Of a stretch of 44,227 nt of DNA, positions 28,008-35,037 are shown piece by piece. The notes below the pieces were generated by a model. The model worked only from the letters and a program-made list of their open reading frames with translations. It searched no databases and had not been told where the DNA came from. How positions within the stretch are numbered: position 1 is the stretch's first letter; each line of letters opens with the position of its first letter. This DNA is from Bacteroidota bacterium (GTDB lineage: Bacteria > Bacteroidota > Bacteroidia > NS11-12g > UBA955): positions 1-44,227 of the forward strand of contig JBKDBI010000254.1 of NCBI GenBank assembly GCA_046314695.1, given 5' to 3'. The position numbers were made by a program, and so were the translations under genes.

Positions 28008-29468
28008 TTAGAATCCTATGCTTATGCCTTGGACGTCGGACTGTCTACGATTTAGTTTAGCATTGATGAACTGTGTTAAGGCGTCCACCATGTCGTCATC
28101 CTTGCGATTTGGAAAGGCAATGGCTTGGTCGATTAAAGAATCCGTAAAGGGATTGTCTAAAAACTTGACGCTCCCTTGATTAAGGTAAATTGTAGAGGCT
28201 TCTGCCCTTGCCTCTTTGGACTCTTTCGGCGTTATGGCAAGCACGTTGTCGATACCATGCTGACGTAATACCCTTATGATAGCGTCACCGTTGGCTTTCT
28301 TTTCAATTATAAGCGAATGAGGGCGGTACTCGTTCATCATCTGCTTGATGCTCGCTAGGGTTGCTAAGAAGTCCATTTGCTTGTTGATGCCATTGACGCA
28401 ATACCACTCGCCCTTGTACCGTGCAAATACGATAATCGCCACGCAGTCGGAAAGCTCCGAATCGCTAAACGTGGCATCTACCGAAAGCAATACCTCTGTC
28501 GCACCATTAATAATGGCGTTGACGTTCTCATCCACAATAGGGAACATCTCCTCTTTGAAGATTTCGCCGTCTGCAACGCTTGGACGCTGTTGTAATTGGC
28601 TGTTGTAGTGCCTCGCCCCTTTTGCCTTTTCCTGTTGCACCCATACTTCACCAAAACGTGCCTCCCATAACAGTTCCCCCTCCTGTGTGCGTGGGTCTTG
28701 AAAACCTAGCGATGAGACTGTCTTAATAGGGTGATTCGAGTCATACAAGGCGGGGAAGCAAAGCACATCATAATGGCGTGCGTAGGCTTCATCTGCTAAG
28801 ATACGCCCTGCGATGTCGTCTTCGTGTAGCCGTTGATGAACCAACACTAAGGGGGTCTTTTCGGCTTTTGTTCCCCTTGTGGTGAAGGTGGAGTCATACC
28901 AAAAAAAACAGGAATCACGCTTTACTTGGCTTCGTGCGTCCTGTGCCTCTAGCGGATCGTCACACAAAAGGAAATCCGCATCCTGACCTGTACCGCCTGA
29001 CGTGGTAATGGGAAGGCGACTCCCCCCTTGCTCATTCTGATAATAGCTCGACCCCCACCGTGTCGCATGGGGCTTGCACACGTCGCCAAATAAACGCTGG
29101 TAGAAGGGGGAGGCAATCAAGTTTCTTGCCTTCACCGCATCCCTTGTTGAAAGATTGTCTTTTGCGGATGCTGACACAAACCGCCGATGAGGTCGCACCG
29201 TCCAGTCCCACGCAGGCATGAACACGTTTACGATGATACTCTTTGCGTGTCGTGGGGGGAGGAATATCATCAAGCGGTTACGCTCTAGCCTGCCCTCTGC
29301 TAAGGCTTGCAAGTGATCGCATATCGCCTCAATGTGCCAGTTCTCCACGAACTCCCCTTGTTGAACCACGACGTGCCAAAATGTCTTTACAAAGAAGTAA
29401 AGGGAGCCTTTGCATAAGCGACGCAAGGCTTCATCATGTGCGAGGCGTAACGCTTGAACGCTTGCCAT
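28008..29468 (-). CDS. terL: terminase large subunit
   Basis: LMIFLPPRHAKS (Walker A-like), LLCDDPLE (Walker B-like) and a C-terminal nuclease-like region. The 486-aa size and the position upstream of the portal gene fit. Confidence 0.85.
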   Translation of the reverse strand: MASVQALRLAHDEALRRLCKGSLYFFVKTFWHVVVQQGEFVENWHIEAICDHLQALAEGRLERNRLMIFLPPRHAKSIIVNVFMPAWDWTVRPHRRFVSASAKDNLSTRDAVKARNLIASPFYQRLFGDVCKPHATRWGSSYYQNEQGGSRLPITTSGGTGQDADFLLCDDPLEAQDARSQVKRDSCFFWYDSTFTTRGTKAEKTPLVLVHQRLHEDDIAGRILADEAYARHYDVLCFPALYDSNHPIKTVSSLGFQDPRTQEGELLWEARFGEVWVQQEKAKGARHYNSQLQQRPSVADGEIFKEEMFPIVDENVNAIINGATEVLLSVDATFSDSELSDCVAIIVFARYKGEWYCVNGINKQMDFLATLASIKQMMNEYRPHSLIIEKKANGDAIIRVLRQHGIDNVLAITPKESKEARAEASTIYLNQGSVKFLDNPFTDSLIDQAIAFPNRKDDDMVDALTQFINAKLNRRQSDVQGISIGF

Positions 29469-29816
29469 TTATACCCCTATCTTCTGATAAGCCAGCCCTT
29501 CCGCTGGGCTGACCGTGTGAACCTGTAGCACCTGCTGATTCGTGTAGCCATTGTGAGTAATTAAGTCTTTTGGCTTGATGACGTAATCATCCGTCAATTG
29601 AACAATCAACACGGCACTAACGCTTGGATTTAATCCGTTGGTGTCCTTCATTGCCACTTGACGGTAAGCCTTGCCTGTGTGTGTCGTGGTCGTGGTTGTG
29701 ACTGCTCCAGTCGTGGCATTGCGTGTGGTTGTTGCCACTTCTGACACCGTGCAAGCCGTGCCGAATCGTGCAAGCAAAGAGGCGACGGCTTTCTTCATTG
29801 TGGCAAGCCCTGCCAT
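29469..29816 (-). CDS. hypothetical protein (weak resemblance to head-tail joining proteins)
   Basis: ORF track. It has a Thr-rich tract, and the C-terminal beta-like segment loosely recalls head-closure proteins. Confidence 0.4.
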   Translation of the reverse strand: MAGLATMKKAVASLLARFGTACTVSEVATTTRNATTGAVTTTTTTHTGKAYRQVAMKDTNGLNPSVSAVLIVQLTDDYVIKPKDLITHNGYTNQQVLQVHTVSPAEGLAYQKIGV

Positions 29817-30184
29817 GGGTAAGTGGCATCGCTCACGATCATCGTCATCGTGCTTGATGCCGTCGTGCCAGTTGTGCCGTCATAAGTGGGGAGCGTGCCT
29901 GCTTGGCTCATTTCGGCGAATGAACGCTTAAGAGCTTCGTATTTTGCCCCCATATTCCCCCATGTGACACTAAGCCCTTCAACAGCTTCATCCTGTGGCT
30001 TGCCTGCCGATTTAGCAACTAAGGCAGTGCAAAGCATGGAAAGGGTTTTAGCCATATCGGAGCCTTGCAAAGCGTAAGAGTCCGTAAGCTCCTCATTGCT
30101 GAATAAGTAAGGGCTTACGGTGTCTTGTAGCAAGAATCGGAGCAAGTCCTTTGCTGAACTGGAGGGCGTGCCTGTGTAGCTCAT
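29795..30184 (-). CDS. hypothetical protein (possible head-tail connector)
   Basis: ORF track; the N-terminus DLLRFLLQDT...LFSNEELT loosely recalls gp6-like connectors. Confidence 0.4.
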   Translation of the reverse strand: MSYTGTPSSSAKDLLRFLLQDTVSPYLFSNEELTDSYALQGSDMAKTLSMLCTALVAKSAGKPQDEAVEGLSVTWGNMGAKYEALKRSFAEMSQAGTLPTYDGTTGTTASSTMTMIVSDATYPWQGLPQ

Positions 30185-30447
30185 TTCTTCTTACCTTTGG
30201 CTTGGGGCTTAGGTGTTTCGTCGATTGTAGGCGTTTCTAGGGCTGTCTCTACGACTTCATCATCAAGTGGTGTGGTTTCGTCACCGATTGATTCGTCAAG
30301 TGGAGCCTCTGAAATCAAACCCCTTTTCTCAAGGATTCTAAACTTATGAAACGGTGTAAAGGTAGGGAGTTTTGACCCCACTTCGTACCAGTCATTTTCG
30401 CCTGTAACATAAACACCTTTAAGCAATTTCTGCTTTAAACCTATCAT
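30181..30447 (-). CDS. hypothetical protein with acidic/Lys-rich tail
   Basis: ORF track; coupled to its neighbours. Confidence 0.45.
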   Translation of the reverse strand: MIGLKQKLLKGVYVTGENDWYEVGSKLPTFTPFHKFRILEKRGLISEAPLDESIGDETTPLDDEVVETALETPTIDETPKPQAKGKKK

Positions 30448-30448
30448 A

Positions 30449-30841
30449 CTAAGCCCCTTTGCTAAGTGAGTAATACTTTAACGCTTTGTTGTCATCATAA
30501 CACGCCATGATGCGTGTCGTGGGAGCCAATAGGCTTATGCCCTTTGCCCTCAATTCCCCCTGAATGAATGCCCTTTGAATCGCTGGGGATGCCTTGCCCT
30601 GCTTGATGAGAGCATGGGGACGTTCAAGGGTTTCAATGTATTCCAGTAGCAGATTGATGGTTTCTTTGAAATAGTCCTCGTTTTGCCCTACGAATCCGCT
30701 AGGCATACACACATGATTGACCACTTCGTGAATCCGTTTGATTGTGGGGTTGTCAAGCTCTGTGCCTGTCTGCACACAAAGGCTTAAATGGCTTAAGGAG
30801 CCTACCAATCGACTAAACAGAACGTCGTCACGAATCGGCAT
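30449..30841 (-). CDS. hypothetical protein
   Basis: ORF track; coupled to terS (ATTATTGA junction). Confidence 0.45.
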   Translation of the reverse strand: MPIRDDVLFSRLVGSLSHLSLCVQTGTELDNPTIKRIHEVVNHVCMPSGFVGQNEDYFKETINLLLEYIETLERPHALIKQGKASPAIQRAFIQGELRAKGISLLAPTTRIMACYDDNKALKYYSLSKGA

Positions 30842-31269
30842 TATTGACCCTCCAGCTTATCAAGTCCCTTGCCTAGTGCGATGATGTTGTCAAAGTCCAT
30901 GTTTTTAATTTGCTCGACAAGGGCTTCATTAACCATGTGAGTGGTTTCTTGCTTGATCTCGTTTTTGTCGGTTTGACCTAGCCATTGTTTACCTAGCCAT
31001 ATCTGCATTGTGACGTTGCCAGCCTCTGCTGACGTGTACTGCATACGACGGAGGGAAGTTTTACCTTGCCCTGAATATCTTTTATATAGCTCCGAAAAAT
31101 TGACACCACCACGCTCTTTGATATTGCGTTCTAAGGTGTCCTCATCCATATCCATAACACTGCAACATTCAACCTGCGTGCAGTTGATACGAAGCATAGA
31201 GAGGAGCATCTCCCACTCCTTATCGGTTAAATCTTTGCGTGGTCGTCCGACTGGTCTTTTCTCGATCAT
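30841..31269 (-). CDS. terS: terminase small subunit
   Basis: GRPRK..T.KEWE.LL..L...CT..E...VM....DTLERNI ... GNVTMQIWLGKQWLGQTD is the typical HTH-type small terminase pattern. Confidence 0.75.
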   Translation of the reverse strand: MIEKRPVGRPRKDLTDKEWEMLLSMLRINCTQVECCSVMDMDEDTLERNIKERGGVNFSELYKRYSGQGKTSLRRMQYTSAEAGNVTMQIWLGKQWLGQTDKNEIKQETTHMVNEALVEQIKNMDFDNIIALGKGLDKLEGQ

Positions 31270-31762
31270 TTAGCGGTCTCCTCTAGTTTTTTGTAAGTAA
31301 AACAAAATGTCGGTCTATTTGCTGAATGTGTTTTTTTAAATGACTTATCTCTATGCCCGGCTTGAATACCTTTTGAGGTTAATATCCAACATGGCGATTT
31401 TTTCAAAGCATTTGATAATGCGGGTGTCCCTGTTGTGATATTTATCTTATGCGTTTTTGAATAATAGTCTGCCACAAAGTTTAATAGTTTAGTTCCAATT
31501 CCAATACCTTGAAAATCAGGAATAATCACTAAACGATGTATTCTTTTTTGACCAACATATCCAAAACTTTGCATAATGGCACAAAATCCTATAATTTGAT
31601 TTTGATATACGGCTATAAATATATCTGCCACTTTGTTTAATTTATGGTCTAAATAATGAAACTTTTTAAAGGTTTCCCATATTTCAGACCCCCATTTTTT
31701 TTCAATTTGAAAAACATCGAAGTGTATTTTTGCTCTAGTTGGTTTTTCTGCATAAAAAAAAA
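31266..31762 (-). CDS. GNAT acyltransferase domain, readable only as a -1 frame continuation of the upstream ATPase gene
   Basis: Motif A is RLVIIPDFQGIGIGTKLL. The track ORF starts at a GTG (31631) inside the fold. Hand translation shows the same frame is open up to 31778 and encodes the missing N-terminal GNAT strands (IHFDVFQIEKKWGSEIWETFKKFHYLDHKL). This stretch has no ATG. Confidence 0.8.
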
Positions 31763-32350
31763 CTGATTCAGATCGGTATCATAAACCCAATCAGGTTCAA
31801 GCCATTCTTTTACATCGTGATGACACGTTATCGCTATAAATTGCTTGTTTTCTCGTTTAATGGATTTTGAAATAGCTAAACACGTGGTTTGAGCCACTGT
31901 TCTATCTACAACGCTGGTAAACTCATCAAATGCAAACCGTTGTTTTTCTTCAAGCAAAGACTTTGCTAAATCAACACGCATTTTTTCACCGTTAGAAAGA
32001 ACATGATAAGGCTTTAACCAACTAGGTGGACTTGCGAATCCCACCGCACTAAACATATTGGTTATTTTTTGAACATTACAATTTTTAGGCATTTCATCAA
32101 TAATGGCATTTTCACCATATTGTAAGTTTACTACAATATCATCTCCAAAACATTCTTTGGCTATTGTGGTTTTACCTGTCCCTGAACGTCCAACGATTAA
32201 ACCGATGTTCCAATCTTTTCCTTCAATATCAATACTCCCTGTAAAGTTTTGATTTAAGTTTGAATCATCCATTGAAAACATATCTAAAACAGATTGTGTT
32301 TTAAAGCTTTTTTTTAATTCTGTTTTTTTTAGTATGTTGAAACTTGGCAT
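31649..32350 (-). CDS. ABC-type ATPase (zero-frame product, 233 aa)
   Basis: Walker A GRSGTGKTT, ABC signature LSNGEKMRVDLA, Walker B/D-loop FAFDEFTSVVD and H-loop ITCHHD are all present. Confidence 0.85.
   Translation of the reverse strand: MPSFNILKKTELKKSFKTQSVLDMFSMDDSNLNQNFTGSIDIEGKDWNIGLIVGRSGTGKTTIAKECFGDDIVVNLQYGENAIIDEMPKNCNVQKITNMFSAVGFASPPSWLKPYHVLSNGEKMRVDLAKSLLEEKQRFAFDEFTSVVDRTVAQTTCLAISKSIKRENKQFIAITCHHDVKEWLEPDWVYDTDLNQFFFMQKNQLEQKYTSMFFKLKKNGGLKYGKPLKSFII
31754..31762 (-). other. T9 homopolymer / slippery site joining the ATPase and GNAT frames
   Basis: The zero frame reads cag TTT TTT TTT atg. A -1 shift on T TTT TTT reads TAT GCA GAA... in the GNAT frame, and T10 would fuse the frames genetically. 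Confidence 0.6.
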
Positions 32351-32865
32351 GAATAACCCTTTTGTGTCAAATACTCATAAGTATTTTCTTGTTCAATTTC
32401 ATTTTCACATTTTATAATAATTTGATACTTTGTTTCTGAATCGGAAAGATCTGTTTTATCTTCATTTTCATTTTGAAATACATCATCTAAAGCTTTTAAA
32501 TCAAACCCTAACAACTCTAAGTCAAACCCCACGTCATCAAGCTGTGCTAGTTCAAGCTTTAAAAGCTCATCGTCCCACCCTGCGTTTAGTGCGAGCTGAT
32601 TATCCGCTAGGACGTATGCTTTGCGTTGCGTGTCCGTCAAGTGGTCAACCAATACCGTAGGGACTTCTTTTAAGCCTAGTTTTTTAGAGGCTAGCAAGCG
32701 TCCATGTCCTGCGATGACGTTGTTTTTATCGTCTATGATGATTGGGTTAATAAAGCCAAACTCTCGAATGCTTGAGGCAATCTGCGTCACCTGTTCGTCG
32801 CTGTGAGTACGGGCGTTGTTGGCATAAGGGATAAGCTTATCAACTGCCACCTGTTGGTATTTCAT
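32329..32865 (-). CDS. ParB/Srx-like N-terminal domain protein
   Basis: VDKLIPYANNARTHSDEQ...IASSI.EFGF.NPIIID..N.VIAGHGRLLASKKLGL.EVP...V..L.D.Q.KAYVLADNQLA..AGWDDELL. The ATG at 32865 is preceded by GGGGAGGGG. Confidence 0.85.
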   Translation of the reverse strand: MKYQQVAVDKLIPYANNARTHSDEQVTQIASSIREFGFINPIIIDDKNNVIAGHGRLLASKKLGLKEVPTVLVDHLTDTQRKAYVLADNQLALNAGWDDELLKLELAQLDDVGFDLELLGFDLKALDDVFQNENEDKTDLSDSETKYQIIIKCENEIEQENTYEYLTQKGYSCQVSTY

Positions 32866-32922
32866 GCGACCCCTCCCCACATTAGAGTTACTACACACTT
32901 GCATGATGACACATTTAGGTGC

Positions 32923-32951
32923 TTACGTCAATAGGTAAAGAGTGGTAAAAT
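32923..32951 (+). promoter_or_regulatory. sigma70-type promoter candidate with extended -10
   Basis: TTACGT (32923-32928), a 17-nt spacer ending in TGg, then TAAAAT (32946-32951). It lies 35 nt upstream of the ATG at 32986. Confidence 0.5.
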
Positions 32952-34383: not shown

Positions 34384-34407
34384 CTTTCGCAGGTTTCGCA
34401 ATCGCAA
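34376..34407. repeat. four direct TTTCGCA (TGCGAAA) repeats at 9-bp spacing, overlapping the -35
   Basis: Copies start at 34376, 34385 and 34394, with a partial copy at 34402. Confidence 0.8.
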
Positions 34408-34423
34408 CGGATGCAAAACCAGT

Positions 34424-34439
34424 TTACTGATGTCAGTAA
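34424..34439. promoter_or_regulatory. 16-bp palindrome TTACTGAtgTCAGTAA (operator-like)
   Basis: Perfect 7-bp inverted arms with a 2-bp spacer, located upstream of the leftward promoter. Confidence 0.5.
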
Positions 34440-34688
34440 CGTGGTAGTGTTACCTACACACCATTTCGTTGACGCCACCGATATGATACTGTTATTTGTT
34501 GCTTGTTGAACCGTTCGGGAATCCCGTACAGTTGCATTGTTAATATGTACGCCTCTCTAAGCTCTAAAAACACACTTCCCCTTGCCTTTATTCATAAATC
34601 GCATTTTCGCACCGTGTGATTGATGCCAGTTGTTGCAAAACGCATTATTTAACTATTGCTCGACTGATTAAAAATTCACAAAGACTGC

Positions 34689-34720
34689 TATATATATTTA
34701 TTTATAAATATATTTTATAA
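34689..34720. other. 32-nt stretch containing only A and T
   Basis: tatatatatttatttataaatatattttataa, directly adjacent to the tandem repeats. Confidence 0.9.
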
Positions 34721-34724
34721 CTTT

Positions 34725-34772
34725 TACCATTACCATTACCATAACTATTACTATTACTATTACTATTACTGC
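34725..34772. repeat. eight tandem hexamers TAC(C/T)AT
   Basis: TACCAT x3, AACTAT, TACTAT x3, TACTGC. Confidence 0.9.
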
Positions 34773-34840
34773 TAGATTTGCTAGGTTTTGCTACAGTTTG
34801 CTTAGCAAAGCTAGCAAGTGCTAGCATTTGCTAGAAAAGC
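34768..34840. repeat. seven (T/A)3GCTAG units phased at 10 bp (iteron-like array)
   Basis: Units start at 34768, 34777, 34787, 34797, 34807, 34817 and 34827. The array includes two GCTAGC palindromes (34810-34815, 34820-34825). Confidence 0.9.
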
Positions 34841-34935
34841 TGAAACTCCTCCAAATGATGTATTCCACAAATAAATGCTTCCCTTTTATAAACAAGTCTG
34901 TTATTATATTCATATCGGTTGAAACAAGTCGACCC

Positions 34936-35037
34936 AATATATTTCCTCAAAACAATTTTGAAACACTTTGACCCGAAAGGGTTAGAGGGAATATATTAAA
35001 TCACCTCTCTACCCAAAGTTCAGAGGTGACTTTTTTT
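34936..35037 (+). ncRNA. candidate structured small RNA or leader ending in an intrinsic terminator
   Basis: A 13-bp stem pairs AATATATTTCCTC (34936-34948) with GAGGGAATATATT (34985-34997), with one G-U pair. It encloses a GAAA-tetraloop hairpin (34969-34984). The terminator hairpin follows. There is no ORF in this stretch. Confidence 0.4.
35001..35037 (+). terminator. rho-independent terminator
   Basis: TCACCTCT (35001-35008) pairs with AGAGGTGA (35022-35029), followed by C and T7 (35031-35037). Confidence 0.7.

Follow-up and report, generated by a model that had tools for sequence, protein, structure and literature searches.

In the 44-kb window analysed here (the whole of contig JBKDBI010000254.1, 44,227 nt, from a Bacteroidota bacterium), three consecutive minus-strand open reading frames (ORFs), lying within 31266-32904 directly upstream of phage packaging genes, encode a ParB-like protein, an ATP-binding cassette (ABC) ATPase and a GNAT-type acyltransferase domain. 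The tail of the ParB-like protein and the two following ORFs form a cassette which, in near-identical phages, appears to be exchanged for enzymes that modify DNA bases, and the two enzyme ORFs are predicted to be joined across a slippery homopolymer into one protein. Taken together, these observations lead us to propose that the locus probably encodes a ParB-assisted, ATP-dependent DNA acyltransferase acting against restriction. A preliminary description of this DNA had listed the same three genes in a row on the minus strand, and all three were found where it had placed them.

The proposed role in DNA modification is based on the genes that occupy the same site in close relatives. The DNA encoding the ParB N-domain (32832-32479) and the DNA of the following gene, which resembles terS (31290-30936), are 88-94% identical to those of loci carrying alternative cassettes, while the intervening 1.19 kb (31291-32478) is unrelated in those loci, as delimited by blastn breakpoints. 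The unrelated segment coincides with a low-GC block (GC content 0.314, versus 0.454 and 0.458 in the flanks and 0.452 in the whole window), in agreement with the earlier remark that this block is AT-richer than its flanks. Because the breakpoints bound 31291-32478 between constant flanks, the unit of exchange is the ParB tail plus the enzyme, and the resulting swappable cassette (minus strand, ParB C-terminal tail and ABC-ATPase-GNAT gene) appears to be moved horizontally between a constant ParB N-domain and the first gene of the packaging region. Where the window has the ABC-ATPase-GNAT (phrog_11143), the gene after ParB encodes a Mom-family protein in loci L090 and L091 (PF25680, E 1e-51 in L090), a TET-associated DNA glycosyltransferase (TAGT) in L092 (PF20691, E 7e-24) and a C5 DNA methyltransferase in L093-L095 (PF00145), cassettes with which that of the window is, as judged from the alignments, allelic. 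Every identifiable alternative enzyme at the site modifies DNA bases, and for this reason we favour DNA modification as the role of the window enzyme. The preliminary description had inferred that the methyltransferase partner of the ParB domain may have been replaced by a putative ATP-driven nucleic-acid acyltransferase; the allelic cassettes between 88-94% identical flanks argue for this core inference, which is now as well supported as sequence analysis allows.

The site itself is a known one. The cassette sits in the ParB-terminase (ParB-Tls) hot-spot of a temperate-type phage with a Mu-like portal. Its position fits a role in DNA modification, since loci of this kind are predicted to modify the phage genome while it is being packaged (PMC4738411). 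In Gordonia phage Axumite (L096) the gene order is ParB-ABC/GNAT-methyltransferase-terminase, and in Gordonia phage CaiB the same pre-terminase slot holds ParB-TET/JBP-pyrophosphorylase-kinase-terminase (PMC9302106). The additional Axumite gene (1805-2452), labelled as a 'tRNA-methyltransferase', lies between the ABC-GNAT and terminase genes with 4-nt overlaps and may provide a second modification step in that lineage. The relatives with Mom and TAGT cassettes share another gene a few kb 5' of ParB and on the same strand, which encodes an LHH protein (PF14411, nuclease-toxin-like; L090 1612-1953, and contig-relative 530-865 on the 44-kb contig carrying P0150) and is separated from ParB by a block of small ORFs on the opposite strand. 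In Burkholderia phage phiE255 the family member gp29 follows the tail-fibre genes, which is the position of Mom in Mu, and overlaps gp30, a putative formyltransferase (PF00551; both within L097 2962-4694); this arrangement hints at a two-step modification in which acyl or aminoacyl transfer is followed by N-formylation.

The ParB ORF spans 32904-32329 and has its likely ATG start at 32865, giving a protein of 178 aa (32329-32865, minus strand), in agreement with independent gene calls. Its sole above-threshold Pfam domain is PF02195 (E 1.2e-9), it matches phrog_620 (E 1.5e-58), and its sequence matches in the PDB are confined to the N-domain of Noc and Spo0J; what adjoins the enzyme is a ParB/Srx N-domain protein which does not have the helix-turn-helix (HTH) of partition proteins. 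Residues 14-157 match the N-terminal part of ParB-methyltransferase fusions (phrog_498, E 1e-57; PADLOC MTase_II, E 5e-46), so that the fusion of this type of domain to N6/N4 DNA methyltransferases, mentioned in the preliminary description, could be recognised. Its view of the C-terminus as a short acidic tail only has to be revised, as the N-domain and a helical LLGFD region are followed by an acidic linker and then by a conserved, partner-specific beta-alpha-beta mini-domain of ~35 aa (YQIIIKCENEIEQENTYEYLTQKGYSCQV), present in every ABC-GNAT-linked ParB examined. In a search with the ParB protein, standalone homologues of ~180 aa sharing this tail numbered in the thousands, and proteins that are 91-95% identical over the N-terminal 72% and have unrelated tails were also returned; one truncated relative runs on into an N6/N4-methyltransferase-like motif.

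The pairing of this protein with the enzyme was followed in a set of 85 loci, made up of the window, 80 loci from IMG/VR and four cultured phages. In 81 of them the enzyme is directly preceded by a ParB ORF, the remaining four being cut by contig ends, and the 3' end of ParB overlaps the start of the ATPase by exactly 22 nt, as in the window, in 80 of these 81, from phages of Gram-positive bacteria through to those of Gram-negative bacteria. This arrangement suggests that ParB and the ABC-ATPase-GNAT are an obligate, co-translated pair. Downstream of the cassette, the related loci carry small-terminase-like (DUF5681 or HTH) and large-terminase (TerL; Terminase_3 or Terminase_6) genes, and the ParB-ATPase-GNAT triad for which a neighbourhood survey had been proposed is therefore a recurrent companion of terminase genes. 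The pair can easily be missed in annotation: the GenBank record of Pseudoalteromonas phage SL25 annotates neither the ParB gene, of 184 aa, nor the ABC-GNAT ORF, of 356 aa (L003 2636-4239 for the two together), which creates a seemingly gene-free gap of 2 kb ahead of the terminase.

The second ORF (31649-32350, minus strand, 233 aa) matches PF00005 and consists of an ABC-type nucleotide-binding domain (NBD, residues 1 to ~199) with a 34-aa tail. It has all four ABC motifs that had been read from the sequence earlier (Walker A GRSGTGKT, signature LSNGEKMR, Walker B FAFDEF and H-loop CHHD), and the identical 233-aa protein occurs in at least five independent assemblies. The third ORF (31631-31266) matches the GNAT models PF13508 (E 1.6e-9) and PF00583 (E 6.4e-8), carries the motif RLVIIPDFQGIGIG and keeps the canonical Q-x-x-G-x-G loop that binds CoA. 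No start codon lies upstream of an internal GTG in the GNAT ORF; instead, its frame is open back to 31778 as the -1 frame of the ATPase, and this open frame (31266-31778) encodes an inter-domain strand and the entire GNAT domain, including a conserved N-terminal part (W..F..HYL), just as the earlier reading of the N-terminal strands as a -1 continuation had it. The 34-aa tail of the frame-0 ATPase ORF is poorly conserved and its stop codon overlaps the HYL motif of the -1 frame. Along phrog_11143, a family of unknown function with 357 positions, the ATPase ORF covers positions 3-194 (E 1e-56), the GNAT ORF positions 232-348 (E 1.5e-20), and the -1 frame fills the intervening 38 positions. We conclude from these profiles that ATPase and GNAT are very likely one protein, an NBD with a C-terminal GNAT in a single polypeptide of the ~356-aa type, for which the window has the conceptual minus-strand coding sequence join(32350..31754, 31754..31266), corresponding to 361 aa.

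When this conceptual fusion was used as query, more than 7000 clusters at 90% identity were identified, nearly all 350-365 aa long and combining PF00005 with a GNAT domain; single-ORF homologues of ~356 aa show 46-52% identity over 98% of the query. Phage SL25 likewise has a single ORF of 356 aa. The family occurs in phages and prophages of Bacteria and Archaea, including phages of lactic acid bacteria, streptococci, actinobacteria, Bacteroidota and planctomycetes, and also on chromosomes of archaeal metagenome-assembled genomes (MAGs), where the copies presumably sit on integrated elements. One such chromosome, of a Methanoregulaceae MAG (OY969564.1), holds three family copies (L098, L100 and L101, at 0.10, 0.79 and 2.08 Mb), which suggests either that the chromosome carries several proviruses related to one another or that methanogen cells themselves make use of the enzyme. 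In a Treponema MAG (L113, 3001-4534) the family match spans ~1.5 kb rather than the usual ~1.06 kb and its GNAT part is in frame +1, suggesting that the gene holds an insertion, possibly a mobile element or an intein-like sequence. An AlphaFold2 model of the 361-aa fusion was of high confidence (pLDDT 87.4, pTM 0.79) and has ordered strands at the junction. Fold searching with this fusion, as had been advised, was successful in part: in the viral structure library the model superposed over its full length only on the family member of Leptospira phage LE4 (TM 0.86), and sequence and fold searches of the PDB found no whole-chain analogue. The window GNAT half has a pI of ~9.8, and the family is uniformly basic (median pI 9.35).

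Database entries label the gene 'ABC transporter', 'ATP binding cassette-like protein' or hypothetical protein. An identity as an ABC transporter was rejected, as neither the window nor the conserved neighbourhood of the 85 loci contains a gene for a membrane or permease partner, and the GenBank labels are for the same reason misleading; among NCBIfam models only generic ABC nucleotide-binding domains were matched, all far below their cutoffs. We also rejected an assignment to a defence system, for which PADLOC gave only weak ABC-domain matches (mad3) and the ParB match to the methyltransferase fusion.

The two halves of the enzyme meet at a run of nine T (31754-31762, minus strand; CAG TTT TTT TTT ATG), which contains the heptamer T_TTT_TTT in phase; no other homopolymer in the window reaches 9 nt. 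Its context is identical in five independent assemblies (ENA, JGI, Logan), so the frame break is not an error; sequencing or assembly error is further rejected by relatives that keep the -1 state with short runs only. Relative to the ATPase, the GNAT frame is -1 in 45 of the 85 loci, 0 in 40 and +1 in none. A slippery motif in the correct phase is found at each of the 33 unique split junctions, comprising 31 heptamers (within T7-T9 runs, A9 runs or A_AAA_AAG) and two T_TTT tetramers, both in phages of Firmicutes; the heptamer and tetramer classes are recognised signals for -1 frameshifting (PMC4066793). The run is not restricted to split genes, as 38 of 39 tallied fused loci have A10, A11 or T10 at the same junction, which means that the slippery run persists whichever frame the DNA encodes. 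Across homologous junctions the runs are T6-T10 or A9-A11, and they occupy two different codon positions, FFF and KKN, in two clades.

Codon use and substitution patterns agree with recoding. In the A10 clade the Lys codons of the run are AAA in 62 of 62 cases, compared with 16% AAG among the codons at 13 other conserved Lys columns. If one A is lost from the mRNA of this clade, the reading frame ends after 25 codons at a stop overlapping the conserved HYL motif; if one A is gained, the run is immediately followed by TAG in 27 of the 30 unique sequences. For the -1-frame GNAT, dN/dS is 0.13-0.41 between closely related split loci, to which the analysis was confined because distant pairs are saturated (dS >1), indicating purifying selection. 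The split arrangement is present in Sanger-era genomes (Lactococcus P335, Streptococcus 315.4 and Oenococcus Vinitor-27) and in Alicyclobacillus, Lachnospiraceae and Eubacteriales genomes. With an in-phase, conserved slippery motif and a downstream frame under selection, the -1 junction is best explained as a family-wide conserved recoding site. Runs of 9-10 nt fit slippage by RNA polymerase at least as well as ribosomal frameshifting, and for T6-T7 and A_AAA_AAG sites the predicted mode is -1 frameshifting by the ribosome. A9/A10 and T9/T10 alleles occur among close relatives; the window allele is T9 in all five assemblies.

We propose the following mechanism. The ParB N-domain, an NTP-binding fold without HTH, would recruit the enzyme to phage DNA, or activate it there, via the partner-specific C-terminal mini-domain. 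The ABC domain would dimerise with ATP, its ATP cycle engaging DNA and exposing a base, and the basic GNAT domain would then move an acyl group from acyl-CoA onto an exocyclic amine of that base. In this way progeny DNA would be marked late, during packaging, and hence be spared restriction in the next host. The slippery run would give two products, a 233-aa ATPase alone and the 361-aa ATPase-GNAT, the full-length form arising via RNA-polymerase slippage that adds one U or via -1 ribosomal frameshifting; in A10/T10 relatives the default would be reversed and slippage would lead to the short form. ABC domains work as dimers, and we speculate that dimers of mixed isoforms are possible. The T9 tract might also switch between 9 and 10 nt by replication slippage, as a form of phase variation. 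A wider proposal, to which we give a little less than an even chance, is that the family is a very large and unrecognised class of ATP- and ParB-dependent DNA acyltransferases across Bacteria and Archaea, which would install a new N-acyl base (e.g. N4-acetyl-dC or N6-acyl-dA) in phage and prophage DNA, with the dosage or isoform ratio set by the slippery homopolymer.

Several observations weigh against this picture. The GNAT resembles generic small GNATs (9mto, 1y9k, 2ae6), with no pointer in fold or sequence to a nucleic-acid substrate, and the ABC domain resembles a transporter-type NBD, unlike those of the DNA-binding proteins Rad50, MutS and UvrA. Some family members, such as phiE255 gp29, have no adjoining ParB. 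As for the recoding, no stable or stimulatory RNA structure was found downstream of the window T9 (z +0.5), part of the A9/A10 dichotomy could be due to mutational ON/OFF states and not to programmed recoding, and distant, mostly high-GC members (Planctomycetota, Endozoicomonas, methanogens) are in-frame fusions without the run. These last members indicate that expression of two isoforms is not essential to the enzyme and that the slippery junction is a derived feature of AT-rich clades.

The alternatives partly overlap with the proposed DNA acyltransferase. One is that the enzyme acetylates proteins, its target being a host defence or housekeeping protein or a packaging or virion protein of the phage, and ParB and the ABC domain serving as regulators or adaptors. 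There are precedents in the GNAT anti-CRISPR AcrVA5, which acetylates Cas12a, and the closest fold matches of the window GNAT are generic small GNATs that include protein and small-molecule acetyltransferases. A role as protein modifiers has moreover been predicted for many phage GNATs in conflict systems (PMC5512222), which speaks for the same reading. We nevertheless consider it unlikely, given that all identifiable replacements at the site in near-identical phages modify DNA bases, that the obligate partner of the enzyme is a ParB of the type known from DNA methyltransferase fusions, and that a late packaging operon suits the marking of progeny DNA better than an early host takeover. Still less probable is an RNA or tRNA acetyltransferase that makes N4-acetylcytidine (ac4C) or a similar base, in the manner of TmcA/NAT10 and with a different ATPase engine. 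The combination of ATPase and GNAT follows the domain logic of TmcA, which ranked 18 in the fold search (2zpa), but that match lacks specificity (TM 0.30, rmsd 14 Å), an ABC NBD stands in the place of the RecD-like helicase, PF13718 stays below threshold, there is no tRNA-binding domain, and the allelic partners act on DNA. Genes for ASCH proteins, described as ac4C amidohydrolases or erasers (PMC6972931; bioRxiv 10.64898/2026.02.27.708502), lie directly downstream in Streptococcus prophage 315.4 (L002 4364-4741) and Oenococcus Vinitor-27 (L004 4462-4896) and are a possible pointer to N4-acetylcytosine chemistry, in favour of an RNA substrate; ASCH is, however, not a conserved neighbour among the 85 loci. 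Least probable of all, in our opinion, is the acylation of a small molecule, either a component of the nucleotide pool or a defence signalling nucleotide, with no polymer as substrate. GNATs often act on small amines and ParB/Srx folds bind NTPs (PMC12704722), yet this explanation accounts neither for the positional interchange with post-replicative DNA modifiers nor for the basic surface charge, and no companion biosynthetic genes are conserved near the 85 loci.

A separate question is whether the split gene of the window is simply an OFF allele, due to a frameshift mutation or a phase-variable homopolymer, in which the ATPase fragment alone is made and no programmed recoding takes place. Among near-identical proteins, A9 gives the -1 frame and A10 frame 0 (L055 versus L056), showing that the tract length changes readily; accessory anti-restriction genes are dispensable and the T9 is followed by no stimulatory structure, all of which would fit such an allele. 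On the other hand, lineages whose motifs are short and not mutable (T5-T7, A_AAA_AAG), among them those of the Sanger-sequenced Lactococcus, Streptococcus and Oenococcus phages, show an old and stable -1 arrangement, with GNAT frames that are intact and under purifying selection. None of the 85 loci has a +1 shift, and T9 is fixed in five samples. Tracts of T9 or A9 also give productive transcriptional slippage elsewhere, as in Shigella mxiE and Thermus dnaX, which again argues against a silent allele. We therefore regard an OFF allele as improbable, to about the same degree as protein acetylation.

The surroundings of the cassette are those of a packaging region. The gene directly downstream (30841-31269, minus strand, 142 aa) flanks the cassette as a conserved gene, and its position and HTH-like N-terminus fit the small terminase presumed earlier ('terS'); its product has no match in Pfam, NCBIfam, PHROG or the PDB, and the label is to that extent without support from any family. 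Four small ORFs (130, 88, 129 and 115 aa; 29469-30841) lie between this gene and that of TerL (28008-29468, minus strand; PF17289; phrog_38, E 5e-89), and it may be one of these, and not the gene of the 142-aa protein, that encodes the actual small terminase. The product of the last of the four is similar to a head-closure protein (phrog_161, E 2e-6), which is not where a connector gene would usually lie, and that of a second one matches phrog_1732 (E 8.5e-7). TerL is followed by a Mu-type portal gene (28006-26657, minus strand; PF06074). On the other side, 5' of ParB, a candidate sigma-70-like promoter (32903-32931, minus strand; TTGACG-17-CATCAT with TG) is a weak match, and because promoter-like matches in the region are not more numerous than expected from shuffling, it is merely consistent with ParB being the first gene of the transcription unit. 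The nearest minus-strand gene 5' of ParB ends in a terminator-like hairpin (33668-33640). A second dip in GC content (0.32-0.35) at 34400-35000 is apparently non-coding, although a short ORF within it (34702-34827) encodes an SNSNSNSN repeat. Megablast of the window gave no match to cultured phages.

If the enzyme does acylate DNA, it would represent a new kind of enzymatic DNA modification, spread over more than 7000 sequence clusters, and the mark would bear on restriction escape, phage therapy, the control of dairy phages, sequencing artefacts and tools for writing DNA marks. The allelic series of Mom, TAGT, Dcm-type methyltransferase and ABC-GNAT at one site is a clean natural experiment, in which the ParB N-domain would be a common chassis for exchangeable, tail-matched effectors; this offers a general way of predicting the function of unknown genes in the slot. 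The predicted recoding site adds a widespread phage case of two products per gene outside the tail-chaperone paradigm, and database entries which name the gene 'ABC transporter' or split it in two can be corrected.

Among known systems, the experimentally studied example of a ParB-terminase locus is the phage thymidine dioxygenase 5mYOX176. A 2026 study showed that this enzyme depends on a phage ParB as a relatively specific activator, and that the ParB combines an N-terminal NTP-binding domain with a C-terminal domain but has no domain for binding DNA (PMC13229309). The window locus is similar in having an HTH-less ParB N-domain protein directly 5' of a variable enzyme and terminase genes, a cognate and apparently specific pairing of ParB tail and enzyme, and an exchangeable enzyme slot (filled here by Mom, TAGT or C5-methyltransferase); it differs in that its enzyme is an ABC-ATPase-GNAT fusion with its own ATPase and recoding site. 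A 2025 survey of the ParB-CTPase fold lists fusions to methyltransferases, DUFs and acetyltransferases, and an ABC-ATPase-GNAT partner is not among them (PMC12704722). Our literature search, whose coverage did not extend to the 2013 paper of Iyer et al., found no paper on this partner or its recoding. ParB-N6/N4 methyltransferase fusions (phrog_498, MTase_II) have the same ParB subtype in the same pre-terminase position, whereas the partner in the window is encoded separately, with a 22-nt overlap and a dedicated ParB C-terminal mini-domain, and would transfer an acyl rather than a methyl group.

Mom of phage Mu is an acyltransferase-fold enzyme which makes N6-carbamoylmethyl-adenine and has no ATPase domain. 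It resembles the window enzyme in its GNAT-type fold, in late expression and in the anti-restriction function that is proposed for the latter. A Mom gene is also a literal allele of it, found in relatives in this very slot and preceded by a ParB N-domain with 91-95% identity. The window GNAT ORF nevertheless has no match to PF25680 at E values up to 0.1, whereas the allelic L090 protein matches it at 1e-51, and it differs from Mom in its canonical Q-x-x-G-x-G loop and its association with an ATPase. In TmcA and NAT10 (Kre33), ATP hydrolysis drives the acetylation of a nucleic-acid base, the N4 of cytidine in RNA, and a P-loop ATPase and a GNAT are likewise found in a single polypeptide. Their ATPase is RecD-like and helicase-related, unlike the ABC NBD of the window, the GNAT subfamilies differ, and the context of the window points to DNA and not to tRNA. 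Membership in the TmcA family was rejected, as the PF00005 ATPase has no helicase family match, PF13718 reaches only E 0.016 (15.1 bits, below the cutoff of 24.6), tRNA_bind is absent and the structural agreement is low (TM 0.30, rmsd 14 Å); the comparison with TmcA made in the preliminary description thus holds as an analogy, and fails as a family assignment on the ATPase class and on the PF13718 threshold.

The junction, finally, is comparable to those of recoded genes such as E. coli dnaX (A_AAA_AAG, a -1 frameshift), Thermus dnaX (A9, transcriptional slippage), Shigella mxiE (T9, slippage) and the phage tail-chaperone G/GT genes. Like these, it has a slippery heptamer or a homopolymer of 9-10 nt at a domain boundary and is predicted to give a short and a long protein with a common N-terminus, and A10 relatives have a stop directly after the run in the alternative frame. 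In contrast to them, in-frame (A10/T10) and out-of-frame (A9/T9/T7) genotypes coexist within the family, the run is found at two positions in two clades, and the window products are predicted from sequence. Overall, the locus is apparently of a known kind, a ParB-terminase DNA-modification cassette, with a large, widespread and uncharacterised effector and a predicted recoding site that had apparently not been described.

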